From NCBI GenBank assembly GCA_018657625.1, contig JABHWU010000124.1, positions 15,277 to 79,276 of the forward strand: DNA of 64,000 nt, given 5' to 3'. The translations under genes and the position numbers were made by a program. Positions within the stretch are counted from its first letter, which is position 1, and each line of letters opens with the position of its first letter. This DNA comes from Deltaproteobacteria bacterium (GTDB lineage: Bacteria > SAR324 > XYD2-FULL-50-16). The notes beneath the pieces are model-generated. The model worked only from the letters and a program-made list of their open reading frames with translations, had not been told where the DNA came from and ran no database searches. Shown piece after piece: positions 3,160-56,762 of this stretch.

Positions 3160-4924
3160 GCGCTTTAAAAACAGCAATGATCTTCAATTACTCGGACGAT
3201 TTTTTACTTATCTCCGTCCCTATTCGCGATATGTCGTTGGTGCCCTGATGGCAATTCCTTTTGCTACAGGCGCGACCTTATTGGTTCCCTGGCTTATTGT
3301 TACCATTGTGGATGACTACATCACTAAATTTAATCAAACCGGGCTAATGTTGTTGGTCGGTTTTTTCGCGAGTGCTGTTTTGCTAGGGTATGTTGCTGAT
3401 GCAATTTATACCTACACTCTGCAAAAAGCTGGACAGTTAGCCATTGCGGATATGAGGCAAGATCTGTTTCGCCATAGCCTAACACTACCAAGAACTTACT
3501 TTGATAAGCACCCTATTGGTATTACACTCAGTCGTTTAACCAGTGACATGGAAGCCATTGGGGAATCATTAGCGATTGGTGTGCTATCACTAGTAACAGA
3601 CCTCATTAAGACAATTGCGCTGTTTGTTTTTCTCTTTTATTTAAGTTGGAAACTGGCCCTGGTGATCTTACTATTATTTCCCGTCATTTATTTTGTTGTC
3701 AGCCTTCTTAGAAAAAAGTTGCGCTACTATTTTAACCTGAGTCGTGAATCATTGGCTTCAGCAACAGCCTTCCTTCAGGAATGCTTAAATGGTATCAAAA
3801 CAATCCAATTATATGCCGCGGAAAAAAAGGTATTAAAACAATTTGAGCAAAAAAATAGAAAATTCTTTCATTCTCAAACCCGATCCAATATTTATGATTC
3901 CACCTTATTCTCAATCATTGATGGTCTGACGTCGATGATGATGGTTCTCATTATCTGGTACGGTACCGATCAAATTTTTGAAGGAGCCATCACTATTGGA
4001 GTATTGATTGGATTCATCAATATTTTAAGTAAGATTTTTATACCAATTCGGGAATTTGCTCAACAGGTTGCGGTGATTCAACGTGCCTTGTCGGCGCTTC
4101 AGCACACCAATGATTTATTCTCCCAAACTTCTGAAGATGAGGATGATGGTGATGTTGATCCTAAAGTGGCAATAAAACTCAGCAGATTTCAGGAACTATG
4201 TTTTGAAAATGTCTCATTTAAATATAACGAAGATGGAATGACCGTCTTGAAAAATCTAACCTTTTGTTTAAAAAAAGGAGACCGCATTGCCATCGTGGGG
4301 GCTACGGGATCGGGAAAATCAACCATATTGAAACTGATCACAAAAGGGTATGGCAACTATGACGGTTCCATCACCATCAACGGCATAGAGTTATCAAGCA
4401 TTCCCAAAAAGACCTTATTAAGTTCTATCTCCATGATGCAACAGGATGTCTATCTCTTTAATACCGATTTGGCATTCAATATCGCACTAAATCGACCCCA
4501 TGTTGATCAGAAGAAAGTTCAGGAATCAGCAGAGTATGTTTATGCCCATGAATTTATCGACCAGTTACCGGATAAATATGGGTATCAAATCATAGATAAC
4601 GGAAAAAATCTGTCCGCTGGCCAAGCACAACTCATCTCATTTGCTCGTGCGATCGCGGGAGAAAGCGAACTAATTCTCCTGGATGAAGCAACTAGTTCTG
4701 TTGATTCGGTGACAGAAAACATGATTCAAAAGGCCATTGAGAAAATATTTCAGGAAAAAACAGTTATTGCCATTGCCCATCGCCTAAGTACGATTAGAAA
4801 TTCTGATATGATTCTGGTGATGAAAGAGGGAAGTATCATTGAAATGGGTGATCATGATAGCCTTCTGAATCAACAGGGTTATTATATTGAACTGCTGGAT
4901 AAAATGACCAAACAAAGCGCATAG
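3149..4924 (+). CDS. ABC exporter, fused permease/ATPase subunit (partner half; non-canonical LSAGQ signature)
   Basis: TM domain plus NBD: Walker A GATGSGKST, signature LSAGQAQLISFARA, Walker B ILLDEATSSVD, H-loop AHR. Translationally coupled to the upstream subunit. Confidence 0.85.
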   Translation: MKSKRFKNSNDLQLLGRFFTYLRPYSRYVVGALMAIPFATGATLLVPWLIVTIVDDYITKFNQTGLMLLVGFFASAVLLGYVADAIYTYTLQKAGQLAIADMRQDLFRHSLTLPRTYFDKHPIGITLSRLTSDMEAIGESLAIGVLSLVTDLIKTIALFVFLFYLSWKLALVILLLFPVIYFVVSLLRKKLRYYFNLSRESLASATAFLQECLNGIKTIQLYAAEKKVLKQFEQKNRKFFHSQTRSNIYDSTLFSIIDGLTSMMMVLIIWYGTDQIFEGAITIGVLIGFINILSKIFIPIREFAQQVAVIQRALSALQHTNDLFSQTSEDEDDGDVDPKVAIKLSRFQELCFENVSFKYNEDGMTVLKNLTFCLKKGDRIAIVGATGSGKSTILKLITKGYGNYDGSITINGIELSSIPKKTLLSSISMMQQDVYLFNTDLAFNIALNRPHVDQKKVQESAEYVYAHEFIDQLPDKYGYQIIDNGKNLSAGQAQLISFARAIAGESELILLDEATSSVDSVTENMIQKAIEKIFQEKTVIAIAHRLSTIRNSDMILVMKEGSIIEMGDHDSLLNQQGYYIELLDKMTKQSA

Positions 4925-49960: not shown

Positions 49961-50048
49961 GTTAACGAACTTTAGTATTATAGCTTTAAAATCAAAGTAT
50001 TATCAAATGTCATCACGATGAAGAATGCGGAGAGATTTTTTGTCTCAA
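49961..50048 (+). repeat. about 90 bp intergenic repeat, family 2, copy B
   Basis: gttaacgaactt...gctttaaaatcaaagtattatcaaatgtcatcacgatgaagaatgcggagagattttttgtctcaa. Aligns base-for-base with 33180-33270. Confidence 0.45.
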
Positions 50049-50286
50049 AATAATGGTAGCCGTTTAGGTGGAATGTCTGGTGAGGTAAAACAATTTGTCA
50101 GGAAATTGTTTTTGGAAATGATACAAAATCTATGGAGCATAATAGATTTCATGCTCCATAAAAAAATTTTATAACTTGCCTGATTTATCAAGGCAATAAA
50201 CAGCGCCCTTATAAGACACCACAATCACTACCAGATATGAAATCAGTAAAACACTTGTTATCATACTATCTCCTTTTTAAACTTGA

Positions 50287-51435
50287 TTAATATGCTTCTT
50301 CATTTTTAATTTCATCAGAGGTCAGCTTTTTAGCATCCATCAACTTCCAAACATAAACCACATAGGCCAATACAAAAGGAATTCCCAGTGCCACATAGCT
50401 CATCGTTTTCAAAGTAAAATAGCTGGATGAAGCATTATATATGCTTAAGCTCGACTGCAAATCAAATTTGGACGGATAAAAAGCCGTGTTATTAAAAGCC
50501 GGTAGGCAAAGAACAGCCAAGCCAACTAATACGGTTCCCAATCCCGCGGGCCAGATACCTTTATTACTATTTTTAAATACCGTAATAAAAACACCAAAAA
50601 TCACCAGAAGCAGTCCTACCAGTAATAAAATTAACAGTAACGGTATTGCTAAAAGATTATTCAGGTATTTATATGACTCAATTTGGAAAACGCCTGCACT
50701 ATCAAATCCAAAGCCGTCCATCACTAAAACAGAAATTAAAACATATAGCAAAAATGGTAAGCTAATTAAAAAATTCTTTGTTACAGCAGAACGCGTTCTT
50801 GATTCCAGCTCGCTGGTTTTAGAAAAATCAATGCTATTTAACAGATAGAGCGCGCCCAGGACTCTGGCGTTCAAGACCAGGAAGATACCAAGAGAAAGGT
50901 TGAACAATGAAAAGGCTGCTTCCAATCCTCTTAAATTTATTCCAAAAAGTGTATAATGCCAGGTTACACTGTTGTAATCACTCAATACAAAATTTGAACC
51001 TGTGTAAAAGGTTCCAACAGCAGCTCCAATCAATAGAATTCCAATAACACCGTTTAAAAGCAGAAACAATTCATAGGTTTTAGCTCCCAGAAAATTATCC
51101 GGTTTTTTGCGATATTCATAACTAACAGCCTGAATAATAAAGGAAAAAAGGATAAGCATCCAAACCCAATAAGCACCTCCGAAACTGGTTGCATAGAATT
51201 TTGGAAAGGCAGCAAACAAGGCGCCTCCAAAAAGTACCAGGGTAGTAAATGGCATTTCCCATTTACGACCTAAAGATGTAACAATGAGTGAAGTTTCATG
51301 ATCTGTCTTGGCGAGCTGCCAAATCAAAGTTTGCCCTCCCTGCACAAATGTTAAAAAGAGGAACAAGGCCCCCACGATGGAACAAATCATCCACCATAAC
51401 TGCTGTAAAGTTGAATAATCCAGTGATCCAATCAT
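50287..51435 (-). CDS. cydB: cytochrome bd ubiquinol oxidase subunit II
   Basis: 382 aa, 8-9 TM. Start overlaps cydA stop by 4 bp. CydB-like N-terminus (LQQLWWMICSIVGALFLF). Confidence 0.85.
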   Translation of the reverse strand: MIGSLDYSTLQQLWWMICSIVGALFLFLTFVQGGQTLIWQLAKTDHETSLIVTSLGRKWEMPFTTLVLFGGALFAAFPKFYATSFGGAYWVWMLILFSFIIQAVSYEYRKKPDNFLGAKTYELFLLLNGVIGILLIGAAVGTFYTGSNFVLSDYNSVTWHYTLFGINLRGLEAAFSLFNLSLGIFLVLNARVLGALYLLNSIDFSKTSELESRTRSAVTKNFLISLPFLLYVLISVLVMDGFGFDSAGVFQIESYKYLNNLLAIPLLLILLLVGLLLVIFGVFITVFKNSNKGIWPAGLGTVLVGLAVLCLPAFNNTAFYPSKFDLQSSLSIYNASSSYFTLKTMSYVALGIPFVLAYVVYVWKLMDAKKLTSDEIKNEEAY

Positions 51436-52967
51436 TTTGTTTCCTCCGGTCCAATAGAGATCTGTTTCAGCATAATCTTAATCTCAGCAATTAATAATAA
51501 AGTAAATACAATGAGAAAGAGTGCAAATGTTACTTGGATATTCCCTGCAGTTAGATTAGTAGTAGCGACTTTCACCGGCATTAAACCTTTTATTGCCCAG
51601 GGTTGACGTCCAACTTCCGCGACGATCCACCCTGATTGAGAGGCAAAGATTCCTAATAAGCCGGCAATCAAACCAAAGGGTAACAACCATTTTTTTTCGG
51701 CAACTGTATTTTTCATGGTGAAAAATAAAAACGCGGCAAATAACAGTGGGAAAAATGAACCCAGAATAAACATCACCCGGAAAGCATAATATGTTAGAGG
51801 TACTGGTGGAACCGCCTCTTCAGAACTATCTAAGTAACCATAACCCAGATATTTCTCATTCTCCTTAAAATTAACCAATGCTTCATTGGTAAGTTGGCTA
51901 TTTTTATTTTTTGAAGCATTTTTAAATTTTGCCAGGTCTTGAATAGCTTGCTTTCCTTTCTCAATTTTACTCGCAACACTTTCTATTTTTTCATCCGGAT
52001 TTCCATACACTAAATCATCGATACCTGGAACAAATGAATCAAAAGAACGATTAGCTAGATATGAAAGTACAAAAGGAAATTTAATGTTCAAGTGAAATGC
52101 GTCCTGGGCATCACCCGGTTTTTTATCACCATTTACTATTCCGAATAAACTGAGACCCGCCGGTTTCTCCCCTTTATACATACCCTCCATAGCTGCCAAC
52201 TTCATGGGTTGTTTTTGGGAAACATCAAAGGCAGACTGATCTCCCGTAAAAACAACAAATACAGAAGAAATCAATCCAAAAACGGAAGCAACAATAATCG
52301 ATTTTTTTGCCATCTCAAGGTGCTTGCCTTTTATTAAATACCAAGAGGAAACTGTCAGGACAAATAGTGAGGCGTATAAAAACCCGGAACTGGAAGTATG
52401 TGTGAATTTAGCTACAGCTACCGGATTGAAAACAACTTCGGCAAAATTAACCATTTCAAAACGAGTCGTAGTAGGATTAAACGCCATACCAACAGGATTT
52501 TGCATCCAGGCATTGGCTACCAGAATCCAAACCGCGGATAAATTTGACCCAATGGCTACCATCCAGGTTGAAAACAGATGGAACTTTTTGGATACCCGAT
52601 TCCAGCCAAAAAACATAACAGCAAAAAAGGTTGCCTCCAGGAAGAAAGCAAAAATTCCTTCAATTGCTAATGGTGCGCCAAATATATCACCCACCATCCA
52701 GGAATAATTAGACCAGTTGGTTCCAAATTCAAACTCAAGAATAATACCAGTCGCAACACCAATCGCAAAATTAATACCGAATAATGTCATCCAGAATTTT
52801 GTAATCGCTTTCCACTCATTTTTGCCTGTTTTGACATAGATGGATTCAAAAAAGGCACATAAAAAAGATAATCCCAATGTTAACGGCACGAACAACCAAT
52901 GATACATTGCCGTCAGCGCAAACTGTGCTCTGGCCCAATTTACCATGTTTAGATCAATATCAATCAT
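51432..52967 (-). CDS. cydA: cytochrome bd ubiquinol oxidase subunit I
   Basis: Start set at ATG 52967 (RBS ggaggt upstream; the ORF-track start at 53012 is an upstream GTG inside the IS-adjacent leader). MIDIDLNMVNWARAQFALTAMYHWLFVP canonical CydA N-terminus. Q-loop present. Confidence 0.85.
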   Translation of the reverse strand: MIDIDLNMVNWARAQFALTAMYHWLFVPLTLGLSFLCAFFESIYVKTGKNEWKAITKFWMTLFGINFAIGVATGIILEFEFGTNWSNYSWMVGDIFGAPLAIEGIFAFFLEATFFAVMFFGWNRVSKKFHLFSTWMVAIGSNLSAVWILVANAWMQNPVGMAFNPTTTRFEMVNFAEVVFNPVAVAKFTHTSSSGFLYASLFVLTVSSWYLIKGKHLEMAKKSIIVASVFGLISSVFVVFTGDQSAFDVSQKQPMKLAAMEGMYKGEKPAGLSLFGIVNGDKKPGDAQDAFHLNIKFPFVLSYLANRSFDSFVPGIDDLVYGNPDEKIESVASKIEKGKQAIQDLAKFKNASKNKNSQLTNEALVNFKENEKYLGYGYLDSSEEAVPPVPLTYYAFRVMFILGSFFPLLFAAFLFFTMKNTVAEKKWLLPFGLIAGLLGIFASQSGWIVAEVGRQPWAIKGLMPVKVATTNLTAGNIQVTFALFLIVFTLLLIAEIKIMLKQISIGPEETK

Positions 52968-53022
52968 ATTAAAACCTCCGATATTTTCGATTTTTAAGTT
53001 AGGAAACCACACATCTAAAAAT

Positions 53023-54414
53023 GGGTCTTCCGCAGAATTAGTGGATTAAATACAAACCATAGGAGTGAGTAAAAAATAACTTTTTTATTGCGACGCACAG
53101 AAAAATACTCCAAAATATTTTAGCAATAAAATATAAAAAAGGAGGTTTCCTGTGCGCATAATTACTCTACTGAATCAAGTTTATTATCTCAAATCATTTG
53201 TTTATAAAAATGATAAAATTGAAGAAGTTGATGGAATGAAAGCCTTTGTGGTTGATATTATTCCCCGGAAAAATAGTAAAGTTGTTTGCCCAATTTGTAA
53301 ATTGCAATGTCCGACGTATGATCATCAGAAAAAACCGAGATTATATGAGTTCATACCGATTTGGGGGATGAAAGTTTACTTTAGATATTTATCTCGTCGT
53401 AGTGTTTGTTTTATTTGTGGTGTTCATGTTGAACTTATTCCATGGGCTGAAGGTAAGAATCATTTGACTAAAGCGTTTCAGATTTTTCTAGCAAAATGGG
53501 CACGACGTTTATCCTGGAAAGAAACAGCAGAGATATTTCAAACCAGCTGGGATAGTGTGTTTCGATCAGTAAAATCAGTTGTTGCTTTTGGATTGAAGCA
53601 TAGACGATTAGATAATATTACAGCAATTGGCGTTGATGAATGGCAGTATAGTCACGGACATAAATATTTAACACTTGTCTATCAACTCAATGACAATATG
53701 AAACGCCTTTTATTTGTAACCAAAGACCGAACTAAGCAATCATTACATGAGTTTTTTGATAAATTTGGCGAAAAACGTTCACAACAACTAAAATATGTTT
53801 GTACAGATATGTGGAGAAAATACTTAGATGTTATCGCTGAACGTGTACCAGCAGCTTTAAATATACTTGACCGGTTTCATATTGTTCAAAACTTGAATAA
53901 AGCTGTTAACAAAGTCAGAATTGCTGAAGCCAGGTTCCATCAACAAGAAGGTTATGAAGCAATATTAAAGCATACGAAATACTGTTTTTTGAAAAGAAGA
54001 GAGAATTTGACTTCCAATCAAGAATATAAACTCAAAGATGTTCTTAGGTATGATTTAAAAAGTGTTCGGGCATACTTGCTAAAAGAGAGTTTTCAACTAT
54101 TTTGGAGTTATAAAAATCCTTATTGGGCTGAGTGGTATTTAAAAAAATGGTGTACAAGAGCGATGCGCTCAAGATTAGATCCAATCAAAAAGTTCGTAAA
54201 AATGCTTCGTAATCATCAACCACTTTTAATGAATTGGTTTAAGGCAAAAAAAGCCTATTCATCAGGCTCCATTGAGGGGTTAAATCGAAAAATAAATCTT
54301 GTTACAAGAAAATCTTATGGATTTAGGAGCTATGAAATCCTTAAGATAGCTTTATTTCACACAATGGGTGACCTTCCCGAACCGGAATTAACCCACAGAT
54401 TTTGCTGAAGAGGC
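53023..54414 (+). mobile_element. ISL3-family insertion sequence (about 1.39 kb) with 8 bp target-site duplication CTAAAAAT
   Basis: Imperfect about 24 bp terminal IRs (gggtcttccgcagaattagtgg / ccacagattttgctgaagaggc, 17/24 match). Identical CTAAAAAT at 53015-53022 and 54415-54422. Single transposase ORF inside. Confidence 0.8.
53152..54408 (+). CDS. ISL3-family transposase
   Basis: 418 aa. N-terminal zinc-ribbon-like CPICKLQCP...C, DDE region with typical ISL3 spacing (GVDEW..., DMW..., C-terminal KINLVTRKSYGFRS). Confidence 0.85.
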   Translation: MRIITLLNQVYYLKSFVYKNDKIEEVDGMKAFVVDIIPRKNSKVVCPICKLQCPTYDHQKKPRLYEFIPIWGMKVYFRYLSRRSVCFICGVHVELIPWAEGKNHLTKAFQIFLAKWARRLSWKETAEIFQTSWDSVFRSVKSVVAFGLKHRRLDNITAIGVDEWQYSHGHKYLTLVYQLNDNMKRLLFVTKDRTKQSLHEFFDKFGEKRSQQLKYVCTDMWRKYLDVIAERVPAALNILDRFHIVQNLNKAVNKVRIAEARFHQQEGYEAILKHTKYCFLKRRENLTSNQEYKLKDVLRYDLKSVRAYLLKESFQLFWSYKNPYWAEWYLKKWCTRAMRSRLDPIKKFVKMLRNHQPLLMNWFKAKKAYSSGSIEGLNRKINLVTRKSYGFRSYEILKIALFHTMGDLPEPELTHRFC

Positions 54415-54454
54415 CTAAAAATTAAAACAAACTGCCAAACATATCCTCAATCTA

Positions 54455-54676
54455 CTACTGGCCATCTTTCTGAACCGGACGCAGCAATTGATTCATCACA
54501 TGATCCGCCTTTTCAGTGTCTGTGTTAAAAGTAGTATTTAAATAATTAGGGAAAAAGAACATTTTTAAAACTGCAAACATGATAAAAAGTTTTATAAAAA
54601 TAATCCCCCATAACTTTTTACCAACTGTCATGCTTTTAAACCCATCATAATAAAAAGAGTAAATTTTGGATAACAT
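54455..54676 (-). CDS. small membrane protein of cyd operon (DUF4492-like)
   Basis: 73 aa, one TM (LWGIIFIKLFIMFAVLKMFFF). Position immediately upstream of cydA as in Bacteroidota cyd operons. Family call from memory of the conserved SFYYDGF/IKLFIMFAVLK pattern. Confidence 0.5.
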   Translation of the reverse strand: MLSKIYSFYYDGFKSMTVGKKLWGIIFIKLFIMFAVLKMFFFPNYLNTTFNTDTEKADHVMNQLLRPVQKDGQ

Positions 54677-54727
54677 GTTACCTTTTCTGATCAGTATTCT
54701 ATTATTAAATTAATTTACAAAATCAAA

Positions 54728-55162
54728 TTAGCCAAATTTTTGATCCTGTGAGAAACAAAAATCTTCCTGAATAAGTTGAGCAAAATTAATATTAGCCAGG
54801 TTTTCCCGTAACTGACTACTGGCATTGTCCCAAACACGATGCACCTTGCAGCGTGGATTCGAAGGGCAAAGCCTGGGCCGACCAACACAATCATTTAAGT
54901 AAATTCTGCCGATCATTATCTCCACGACCTGCAACAGTGTAATCTCTTTTGGGTCTTTTAACAAACGATAACCGCCACCGGCCCCTTGTTTTATTTCAAT
55001 CAACCTGGCTTTACTGAGATCCTGGACTATCTTGGCCAGAAAACCTGCTGGTATTTCAGCATTTTGCGATATCTCTAGTTTTTTTACAGATATCCCAACA
55101 CCTCTCTTCGAAAGATATGTGATACACCTTATAGCGTATTCACCGGCCCGTGTTAGTCTCAT
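54728..55162 (-). CDS. Rrf2-family transcriptional regulator (IscR/NsrR-like, Cys-containing)
   Basis: MRLTRAGEYAIRCITYLS wHTH start. C-terminal Cys triad CVGRPRLCPSNPRC typical of Fe-S-binding Rrf2 members. Confidence 0.8.
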   Translation of the reverse strand: MRLTRAGEYAIRCITYLSKRGVGISVKKLEISQNAEIPAGFLAKIVQDLSKARLIEIKQGAGGGYRLLKDPKEITLLQVVEIMIGRIYLNDCVGRPRLCPSNPRCKVHRVWDNASSQLRENLANINFAQLIQEDFCFSQDQKFG

Positions 55163-55174
55163 AAAATCTCATAT

Positions 55175-55200
55175 AGGATAAATAAGGCATTATTTATCCT
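55175..55200. promoter_or_regulatory. perfect 10 bp-arm inverted repeat, candidate Rrf2 operator
   Basis: aggataaata-aggcat-tatttatcct, 13 bp upstream of the Rrf2 gene start codon. Confidence 0.4.
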
Positions 55201-55566
55201 ATTTTAATTTGATGTCAAGAATTTTTTAAAGTCTATGATTGTTTTTTGTTATCAAATAAAAAATGACCTTTCAGAATAAGTTTATGTGCATTTTACTGCA
55301 TGTTCTAAAAATCGCTTAACCCCCTCTCAAAAATGGCTACTTGACGTTAGATAAAAATCCAATTCCAGTCACTTGCCCAGATGGATGATATGATGTAATC
55401 ATTATTTACATAAAAAACAGCATTCTATTTGGCATTACTACCAGTTTATTGCAATCTTCAATTAGGTAACATCTGTCAGCATATTGCGCAAAGTCGAAAA
55501 GGCACAGATATGGTTTAGAATCATCTTCATCGTTAACATAAAATAACTTCAATCTAAATCCTAAAC

Positions 55567-56157
55567 ATGAAAATTATCAGAAAAAAAGACCTGACAACCA
55601 GTCAATGGTCAGGGGGAACAACAACTCAATTATATATTTACCCCAAACAGGCCACCTATCAGAAATTAAATTTTGATTTCCGGCTCAGTTCAGCCAGAGT
55701 TGAGATTGAGGAATCCACCTTTACAAAATTGAAAGGGATTTCCAGAATCATCATGGTTTTAGAAGGGGAAACGTTTCTAACCCACAAACAACGTGATACT
55801 GTTTACTTAAAAAAGTTCAATATTGATCACTTTGAAGGCGATTGGGATACATCCAGTAAAGGCAAAGTAGTAGATTTTAATTTGATGTTGAATCAAAACT
55901 ACGAAGGGAATCTTAGTCACCTGATTCTAACTAAAAACCGATCTCAGCCGGTACAACAAACAAATAAAAACGGATCTTTAATCATTTATCTATATCAGGG
56001 TCTGGTGTATGTCATAGCAGGCGAGAAAGAAATTACCATGGGTGCCGGTGATACCCTGGTCTTAAATTCAACAAAGGACAAAGGAAATATCAATATCAAT
56101 GCACCCGAAGCTAGTGTCTTAATTATATCTGAAATTAGTAAAAAAAAAGATAAATGA
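55567..56157 (+). CDS. HutD/Ves-family protein (cupin-like), tentative
   Basis: 196 aa. N-terminal KDLTTSQWSGGTTTQLYIYP resembles the conserved HutD start (W-x-GG-T-x-L). Otherwise unannotated. Confidence 0.4.
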   Translation: MKIIRKKDLTTSQWSGGTTTQLYIYPKQATYQKLNFDFRLSSARVEIEESTFTKLKGISRIIMVLEGETFLTHKQRDTVYLKKFNIDHFEGDWDTSSKGKVVDFNLMLNQNYEGNLSHLILTKNRSQPVQQTNKNGSLIIYLYQGLVYVIAGEKEITMGAGDTLVLNSTKDKGNININAPEASVLIISEISKKKDK

Positions 56158-56762
56158 AACATAACACTCTATTTAACAGCCTTATTTGGAGACCAGCACG
56201 CTCACAAAGATAATCCACTATAAGCTTAATCCCTTTTTTCTTAGAAATTTTGCTATTCTTATTACATTCTTGAGTTTCAATCCATCTGGGTTCAAAAGAC
56301 AATCCACAGGATTTATACTTCCCTTCGCTATGATTATATGGCTGCAAATCAACTCGTAATAGCCCCGGTCTACTCTTTCTATCGCTAATTTAACAGCGGC
56401 AATTGATATTTATGGTTGTTTATAATGATAATAACCATCATTGTTATCATCGCATAAAATTGGGGGATACTCGCTAACAGAAAAGTACAGAATAACCTAT
56501 AATTTGTTATTTCAAGTTTTGAAGAAACGGGTCCCTAAGAATGACACCAGCTATAAATTTTTAGACAGGAGAAGCACTAAAACTGCTTCTTTTGATAACA
56601 AACACCCAATGTTGATTGAAGATTTAGGGGAACAAGTTGAAATTGGGGTAGTGTTTTTGAGAAGTATTTGAGCCAATATTTATAAAAATCGAAAAATCAG
56701 AATTGAGATAGAAAAAACCTGTGATTTTGAATCATAAAAAAATCACAGGTTCATACTACCTT

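Follow-up and report, generated by a model that had tools for sequence, protein, structure and literature searches.

An ISL3-family insertion sequence splits a cytochrome bd operon of an uncultured bacterium from the oxygen-minimum zone of Saanich Inlet

Insertion sequences (ISs) of the ISL3 family are compact elements of 1.2-1.6 kb. They typically carry a single transposase open reading frame (ORF) of ~400-440 amino acids (aa) with a DDE_Tnp_ISL3 domain, are bounded by imperfect terminal inverted repeats (IRs) of a few tens of base pairs (~15-40) that start with GG, and are flanked by 8-bp AT-rich target-site duplications. Here, we describe an element of this family that lies between the small DUF4492 gene and cydA, inside the cytochrome bd oxidase operon, on a 64,000-nucleotide stretch of contig JABHWU010000124.1 that we refer to as the window. 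The closest functional precedent is IS1411, an ISL3-family element of Pseudomonas putida. In the passages of PMC3485313 and PMC9330008 that cite Kallastu et al. 1998, outward promoters at IS1411's left end activate the promoterless pheBA genes. The same passages state that IS1411 moves by way of a circular intermediate and that its donor copy is retained at the original site. A review (PMC9330008) also describes IS-supplied promoters more generally, for example at ISEcp1-blaCTX-M and in IS families listed with complete outward promoters; an element inserted shortly before a gene then provides the promoter or takes the place of the native one. That an IS may land in an operon and replace the promoter of the downstream genes is already known, the ISL3 family is very large, and the insertion by itself is routine. 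The novelty lies in the host and the target, in an insertion that is apparently fixed within a natural population, and in support from community RNA. Our preferred interpretation is that the operon has been split: cydAB is still expressed, but its transcription probably starts in the left end of the IS and no longer at the Rrf2-regulated promoter.

It is virtually certain that positions 53023-54414 (1,392 bp, 33.7% G+C, plus strand) hold a complete, intact ISL3-family IS at this site, as judged by domain models and by ends that recur in independent copies. The only ORF of the element (53152..54408, plus strand, antisense to the cyd operon) encodes a transposase of 418 aa and begins with a GTG start codon preceded by AGGAGG. 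Its product matched the Pfam model DDE_Tnp_ISL3 (PF01610) with E = 4.9e-71 over profile positions 1-238 of 240, and the NCBIfam equivalog NF033550 with 284.2 bits (cut-off 180) over positions 7-367 of 370. Matches to Zn_ribbon_ISL3 (20.4 bits, cut-off 25.5) and HTH_Tnp_ISL3 (21.5, cut-off 27.4) were found N-terminally, at the expected positions and below threshold. The left IR, GGGTCTTCCGCAGAATTAGTGGATTAA (53023..53049, plus strand), forms the end that faces cydA and is kept in four variants of the IS. It agrees with the right IR (54388..54414, minus strand, read on that strand as GCCTCTTCAGCAAAATCTGTGGGTTAA) at 17 of 24 positions, or at 20 of 27 when extended; given the base composition of the window, at least 20 matches in 27 would occur with a probability of ~5e-7. 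Immediately outside the two ends, CTAAAAAT is present at 53015..53022 and again at 54415..54422 as a perfect 8-bp target-site duplication, and an 8/8 match at these fixed positions has a chance probability of ~2.8e-5. Related copies at other sites stop at the identical end bases, and three independent insertions of close variants are each flanked by a different perfect 8-bp duplication, again AT-rich (ATCAAAAA, TTAAATAC and ATTTTAAT). Because these copies share the exact end bases, the ends of the element are fixed independently of the present locus. No second copy of the IS was found in the 64-kb window. The initial annotation, made from the letters alone, had recognized an intact ISL3-family IS with imperfect IRs of ~24 bp and a perfect 8-bp duplication that marked an unrearranged insertion. 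The family models, the IRs and the two identical copies of the duplication bear this out, and the divergence between duplications that it had named as the sign of an ancient insertion was not seen.

The genes at the locus follow the order Rrf2-DUF4492-[IS]-cydA-cydB, with all cyd genes on the minus strand and the transposase gene opposite to them. The left end of the IS faces cydA at a distance of exactly 55 bp from the cydA ATG at 52967, in agreement with the ~55 bp, beyond DUF4492 and Rrf2, estimated beforehand. The cydA ribosome-binding site GGAGG is located at 52979-52975, 7 nt before the ATG. On the other side, 40 nt separate the DUF4492 stop codon from the right end of the IS. DUF4492 and cydA are now 1,487 bp apart, and subtracting the IS and one copy of the duplication brings this distance to 87 bp. 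Both oxidase genes are intact: cydA (51432..52967, minus strand) encodes cytochrome bd subunit I of 511 aa (PF01654, E = 2.8e-161, positions 1-418 of 418), and cydB (50287..51435, minus strand) encodes subunit II of 382 aa (PF02322, E = 1.5e-62, positions 1-302 of 302). A 526-aa long form of CydA was not on record in an exact-protein look-up. The small DUF4492 gene (54455..54676, minus strand; PF14899, E = 5.8e-31) encodes 73 aa, or 58 aa from an internal ATG. The Rrf2-family transcriptional regulator (54728..55162, minus strand, 144 aa) was recognized by Pfam (E = 1.6e-31) and by the NCBIfam model rrf2_super above its cut-off, and none of the named NCBIfam equivalogs matched it above cut-off.

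The arrangement that preceded the insertion can be judged from relatives. We scanned one genome per species for CydA and kept 80 loci at 64-79% identity; the best were metagenome-assembled genomes (MAGs) of SAR324 (79%), followed by Desulfobacterales and Desulfobulbales, and the species of the window itself was not among the 80. At 75 of these loci the gene directly upstream of cydA is a DUF4492 gene in the same orientation (median gap 48 bp), and four of the remaining five have little or no sequence 5' of cydA. An Rrf2 gene precedes DUF4492 at 26 of the 80, and a transposase at the cyd locus was found in none. CydA and CydB of the window are full length and colinear with those of the 80 relatives. 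The nearest sister lineage (CydA P0130, 86% identity) carries HutD..Rrf2-DUF4492-(85 bp)-cydA with no IS, and this IS-free lineage is also present in one of the same samples as the window's population. Since 75 of the 80 relatives and the 86% sister have DUF4492 directly before cydA, the ancestral operon was contiguous, and from this comparison of gene orders the insertion is judged to be derived and lineage-specific. The initial annotation had taken DUF4492, often together with Rrf2, as the normal neighbour upstream of cydAB and had proposed comparing related genomes for an uninterrupted arrangement; both the 80 loci and the sister lineage agree with it. A HutD-family gene at 55567-56157 (plus strand), divergent from and upstream of rrf2, belongs to a neighbourhood that is kept in the IS-free sister lineage, and this shared neighbourhood therefore supports the orthology of the two loci. 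No paper that treats DUF4492 together with cytochrome bd was found in the literature. The IS thus transposed into the AT-rich 8-bp target CTAAAAAT within an 87-bp DUF4492-cydA spacer of an Rrf2-DUF4492-cydAB operon.

The spacers of two SAR324 relatives contain a further feature. In contigs L020 (~3950-3975) and L021 (~3950-3978), DUF4492 and cydA are separated by a short GC-rich hairpin with a T-run behind it (TTGCC...GGCAGCTTTTT), which looks like an attenuator or terminator. The spacer of the window retains only the GGCAG-T-rich half, and the IS landed in the T-rich tract just beyond it.

Upstream of rrf2, the promoter scan returned a probable native promoter for the operon, a strong sigma-70-type TTGACA-N18-AATAAT (55189..55218, minus strand) with 11/12 matches. 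Its -10 hexamer is overlapped by an inverted repeat with perfect 13-bp arms, ATAGGATAAATAA-TGCC-TTATTTATCCTAT (55173..55202), which is unique in the window and of which 0 are expected by chance. The SAR324 relatives L020 and L021 have an equivalent palindrome (AAGATAAATAAGA...TCTTATTTATCTT) in the same place relative to the TTGAC element. The repeat at 55173-55202 is probably an autoregulatory operator of Rrf2.

Evidence on how the two halves of the split operon are transcribed came from a community metatranscriptome. The JGI dataset 3300004974 is the metatranscriptome of sample SI047_S3_200 (July 2010, 200 m), and 3300000171 is the metagenome of the same sample (Table S2, PMC5663217). RNA from Saanich Inlet was treated with DNase, depleted of rRNA and made into stranded libraries. 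Two assembled RNA contigs match the locus at 100% identity, both read here in the orientation of the operon (minus strand). The first, L157 (54262..55171), runs from rrf2 through DUF4492 and the 40-nt spacer into the IS, where it ends after 153 nt of the right end; its start at 55171 lies 9 nt before the Rrf2 ATG and ~11 nt past the start predicted from the Rrf2 promoter. The second, L141 (50683..53141), opens with 119 nt from the left end of the IS and continues through the left IR, the duplication and the 55-nt native leader into the whole of cydA and the first 753 nt of cydB; its start at 53141 lies 174 nt upstream of the cydA ATG and 119 nt beyond the IS junction. The remaining 1,120 nt of the IS interior, which is the body of the transposase gene, are covered by neither RNA contig. 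The single contig L157 joins rrf2 to DUF4492; the two genes are therefore co-transcribed, and the RNA that they share enters the IS. In situ, cydAB transcripts carry a 5' leader derived from the IS, a conclusion that we hold with high confidence. The initial annotation had argued that the insertion must either uncouple cydAB from its native promoter and regulator or drive it from a promoter borne by the element, and had named a cydAB transcript independent of the insertion as the outcome that would speak against this. The RNA fits this either-or argument: L157 ends and L141 begins inside the IS, and the assembled 5' part of the cydAB transcript is IS sequence.

This last result also bears on the idea that cydAB has a promoter of its own in the remaining 55 bp, or a hybrid promoter at the junction, so that the insertion would be transcriptionally irrelevant. 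The leader is AT-rich and contains weak -10-like hexamers, and the hairpin and T-run between DUF4492 and cydA in the SAR324 relatives hint at transcriptional punctuation at this position. However, because L141 reaches 174 nt upstream of the ATG and extends 119 nt into the IS, the assembled cydAB transcripts start upstream of the junction, and because the cydAB RNA carries IS sequence on its 5' side, a promoter in the native leader is not its sole source. The sole promoter-like match in the leader, moreover, overlaps the start codon, and a scan together with manual inspection for hybrid or leader promoters at the IS-cydA junction gave nothing convincing. We consider this explanation very improbable.

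We propose that the locus now functions as two transcription units. The first would start near 55182 from the promoter controlled by the Rrf2 operator, transcribe rrf2 and DUF4492 and fade ~150 nt inside the right end of the IS. The second would have its start within the left part of the IS, either at 53141 or upstream of it, and continue through the left IR and the 55-nt leader into cydAB. We rate the chance that the cydAB transcript initiates inside the IS, and not by read-through, as somewhat better than even. The nearest and best candidate for an outward promoter of the second unit, TTGAGA-N17-TAGAGT with 9/12 matches and weak statistics, is located at 53164..53192 on the minus strand. Its predicted start, near 53157, precedes the 5' end of L141 by 16 nt, and at the well-supported Rrf2 promoter the RNA contig falls short by a similar 11 nt. 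Its hexamers are largely kept in the four IS variants, yet they lie inside coding sequence. For the end of the first unit, a pattern scan gave a tentative terminator-like site inside the IS where L157 stops, a weak hairpin with T7 at 54240..54270 (minus strand). A second candidate promoter at the left end, TTTACT-N17-TTTAAT at 53071-53043, was rejected, as it cannot explain an RNA contig that starts at 53141. A search of Rfam over 50000-56500 at E <= 1 returned nothing beyond a chance-level match to a viral pseudoknot.

The competing explanation is read-through, in which the Rrf2-controlled promoter still transcribes cydAB across the 1.4 kb of the IS, antisense to the transposase, so that the operon would remain coupled, if perhaps with lower expression, and the assembler would have cut one transcript into the two RNA contigs. 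L157 itself shows the rrf2-DUF4492 transcript entering the IS, and no convincing intrinsic terminator was found inside the IS on the operon strand. A multi-copy IS breaks assemblies, and the 119 nt that L141 adds beyond the junction are a typical k value, which is what a repeat-induced break would give. Against this, the 153 nt by which L157 enters the IS exceed any plausible k and differ from the 119 nt of L141, unlike the symmetric, k-limited breaks that DNA contigs show at this IS (described below). Nor was there any long stretch at 54262 shared with the IS2 variant, a relative of the IS found in the same samples, that would account for the stop of L157. Since the two ends are unequal and no such shared stretch exists, the stop looks like a loss of coverage and not like an assembly break. 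In addition, cydA was assembled within a contig of 2.4 kb while the IS interior appears in neither contig. Read-through across the whole IS is thus a rather unlikely account of the data, and initiation within the left part of the IS is the reading that we carry forward.

Several points weigh against that reading and temper it. The RNA evidence consists of two assembled contigs from one sample, without strand information or read coverage. The 119 nt by which L141 enters the IS coincide with a k that assemblers commonly use, and the 5' end of this contig could therefore be a repeat-induced break. The promoter scan returned 17 sites of the candidate's quality in 2.7 kb as compared with 12.1 +/- 2.7 in shuffled sequence, and the probability of such a site falling within 50 nt of the contig end by chance is ~0.15. 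The conservation of its hexamers may reflect only the coding constraint on the transposase. The terminator-like site at 54270-54240 folds no better than shuffled sequence (z = -0.98), and low-level read-through across the IS is possible. With regard to the population, rare empty-site alleles could exist, given the incomplete scan of the contig collection described next.

The spread of the insertion was followed by exact-protein look-ups with the transposase, both DUF4492 forms, Rrf2 and CydA in data from ENA, JGI, Logan and the NCBI MAG GCA_018670155.1, which returned contigs assembled with MEGAHIT, SPAdes and Logan. The exact transposase protein was present on 23 contigs. Dozens of population contigs were 99.9-100% identical to the window, an identity that holds over 6 kb, and all of those that reach the site contain the IS. 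Every sample of known provenance came from Saanich Inlet, from 2009-2010 onward; contig L159, for example, derives from September 2009 (BioSample SAMN05224480, SI037) and contig L117 from July 2010 at 200 m (SI047). None of the recovered population contigs has an empty site. A query with the exact 30-mer of the reconstructed empty junction, ...CCACACATCTAAAAAT joined directly to TAAAACAAACTGCC, had no match in a metagenome contig collection, a weak negative since the same collection also missed the IS-bearing contig Ga0233431_1006318 (L013/L113). The insertion is at or near fixation in the sampled population. The initial annotation spoke of altered regulation in 'this strain'; the insertion itself is confirmed, but it is population-wide and no peculiarity of one strain. 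With population contigs at 99.9-100% identity and perfect duplications, dating of the insertion is impossible. The RsmB protein of the host is 100% identical to that of a 'Deltaproteobacteria bacterium' MAG, with Lambdaproteobacteria (40%) and SAR324 (38%) as the nearest named matches, and the host is an uncultured bacterium of the Saanich Inlet oxygen-minimum zone.

In the same searches, at least four other flanks, X1-X3 and Y1, were seen attached to the identical IS. The alternative left flanks end in ATTTTTAT, AAAAATAT and TTAAAAAA (contigs L004/L010, L006/L007/L116 and L009), and the alternative right flank starts with AAAATTTA (L119, 1516-1641). When one of these flanks is paired with a cyd flank, the 8-bp duplications never match, and for this reason we regard the contigs that carry them as chimeras between copies. 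DNA contigs that end at the IS break exactly k bases inside both of its ends (141 for MEGAHIT, 55 for SPAdes and 31 for Logan). Such symmetric breaks are the signature of a repeat, and the community therefore holds at least four further identical copies. The fact that identical copies adjoin other flanks also suggests that the IS is active now, or recently was.

The presence of such chimeras raises the question of whether the window contig is itself chimeric at the repeat, with the IS not truly at the cyd site. Chimeric joins do occur at this IS, in the combinations X1-X3/IS/DUF4492, cydA/IS/Y1 and TTAAATAC/IS/ATCAAAAA. However, matching 8-bp duplications were found only in the combination cydA/IS/DUF4492, and removal of the IS with one copy of the duplication restores a spacer of 87 bp, comparable to the 85 bp of the sister lineage. 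The same structure recurs across many samples and three assemblers, in more than 15 contigs, again with no contig showing an empty site. The probability that the insertion is an assembly artefact is negligible. For work with MAGs there is a practical warning in this: whether the assembly came from MEGAHIT, SPAdes or JGI, the IS gave rise to chimeras whose flanks do not match.

The four IS variants share 81-90% DNA identity. One of them, IS2 (P0121/P0122), has 89.7% DNA and 94% protein identity, the same ends and 8-bp duplications, and occurs in the same samples; it differs in its length of 1,384 bp, owing to an 8-bp deletion in the left non-coding part. IS2 occupies at least two other loci, between an isochorismatase gene and a histidine kinase gene (with a response regulator), and between a PAS kinase gene and an integrase gene, and was never found at cyd. 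We had considered one-ended rearrangements of the IS (deletions or inversions) as an explanation for the odd contigs and dropped it: L119 combines the cydA flank with a different right flank, and chimeras of the same kind, with mismatched duplications, link the two true IS2 sites. The odd contigs are explained by chimeric assembly or by recombination between copies. The IS2-bearing contigs (L120-L136, L101 and L102) were binned by NCBI as 'Bacteroidetes bacterium', which means either that the IS has spread across phyla or that these contigs were mis-binned. A separate contig, L017 (1994-2196), follows the window through DUF4492 and into the IS, leaves its sequence at 53201, after transposase codon 17, and runs into an unrelated stretch of 19% G+C. 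The switch yields a transposase of 423 aa with a different N-terminus (P0127), and may represent a second insertion, a rearrangement or a chimera.

At the other end of the operon, a 31-aa ORF lies 22 nt 3' of cydB at 50169-50264 on the minus strand, and its gene call recurs in many independent population contigs. It had no match in NCBIfam and could be a CydX/CydS-like small subunit.

The insertion may have changed the regulation of cydAB or oxygen respiration in this bacterium. An adaptive interpretation would go further: the insertion would have freed cydAB from the promoter controlled by the Rrf2 repressor (of the Fe-S/redox type), the IS promoter would have taken over, and the allele would have swept the Saanich Inlet population. 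If so, the host would make a constitutive, sulfide-tolerant and high-affinity bd oxidase, even in the 200-m basin water that was sampled for RNA. It would also be a natural case, at the level of a population, in which an IS has rewired the regulation of respiration in an uncultured inhabitant of an oxygen-minimum zone, and one that is traceable through the existing multi-year series of metagenomes, metatranscriptomes and metaproteomes. We regard this scenario as doubtful. The alternative is that drift or hitchhiking raised the IS to its high frequency in a local population that is nearly clonal. The insertion would then be without adaptive meaning, and cydAB expression incidental or decaying. 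Identity of 99.9-100% over 6 kb means that diversity is extremely low and that drift, or a sweep elsewhere in the genome, can fix any variant; the provenanced samples are all from Saanich Inlet, and there is no polymorphism for testing selection. On the other hand, cydA and cydB have remained full length, colinear with their relatives and transcribed in situ. We place the probability of neutral fixation a little short of even, and note that this alternative concerns evolutionary meaning only and is compatible with either transcriptional mechanism. Whichever holds, the locus is a clean natural example of an IS that parts a respiratory operon between its regulator and its enzyme genes, with the enzyme genes still expressed under an IS-derived leader. 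The co-occurrence of the IS-free sister lineage in one shared sample means that the public Saanich Inlet time series can test both the change in regulation and selection.

Compared with the described members of its family, the element is conventional in structure. The single-ORF layout, the IRs starting with GG and the 8-bp duplications are common to it and to generic ISL3 elements (the ISL3, IS1096, IS1165, IS204 and IS1001 types). It stands apart in sequence: more than 7,700 relatives of the transposase were found at E <= 1e-30, and the closest proteins beyond its own cluster at >=90% identity are only 87-88% identical, unnamed and metagenomic. Since its nearest relatives outside the cluster are this distant and unnamed, the element would receive a new IS name as an unnamed ISL3 member. 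The comparison with IS1411 is made at the level of the family. In both cases the transposase belongs to the ISL3 family and the left end of the element adjoins the downstream genes. The two differ in host, habitat and target, which is a respiratory oxidase here and phenol catabolism in IS1411, and the outward promoters of IS1411 were demonstrated experimentally, whereas that of the present element is a candidate suggested by an RNA contig and a weak consensus match. Cases of the ISEcp1 type concern clinical resistance genes with measured promoter strengths, whereas the present one concerns a respiratory operon in an uncultured bacterium, with expression inferred from community RNA.

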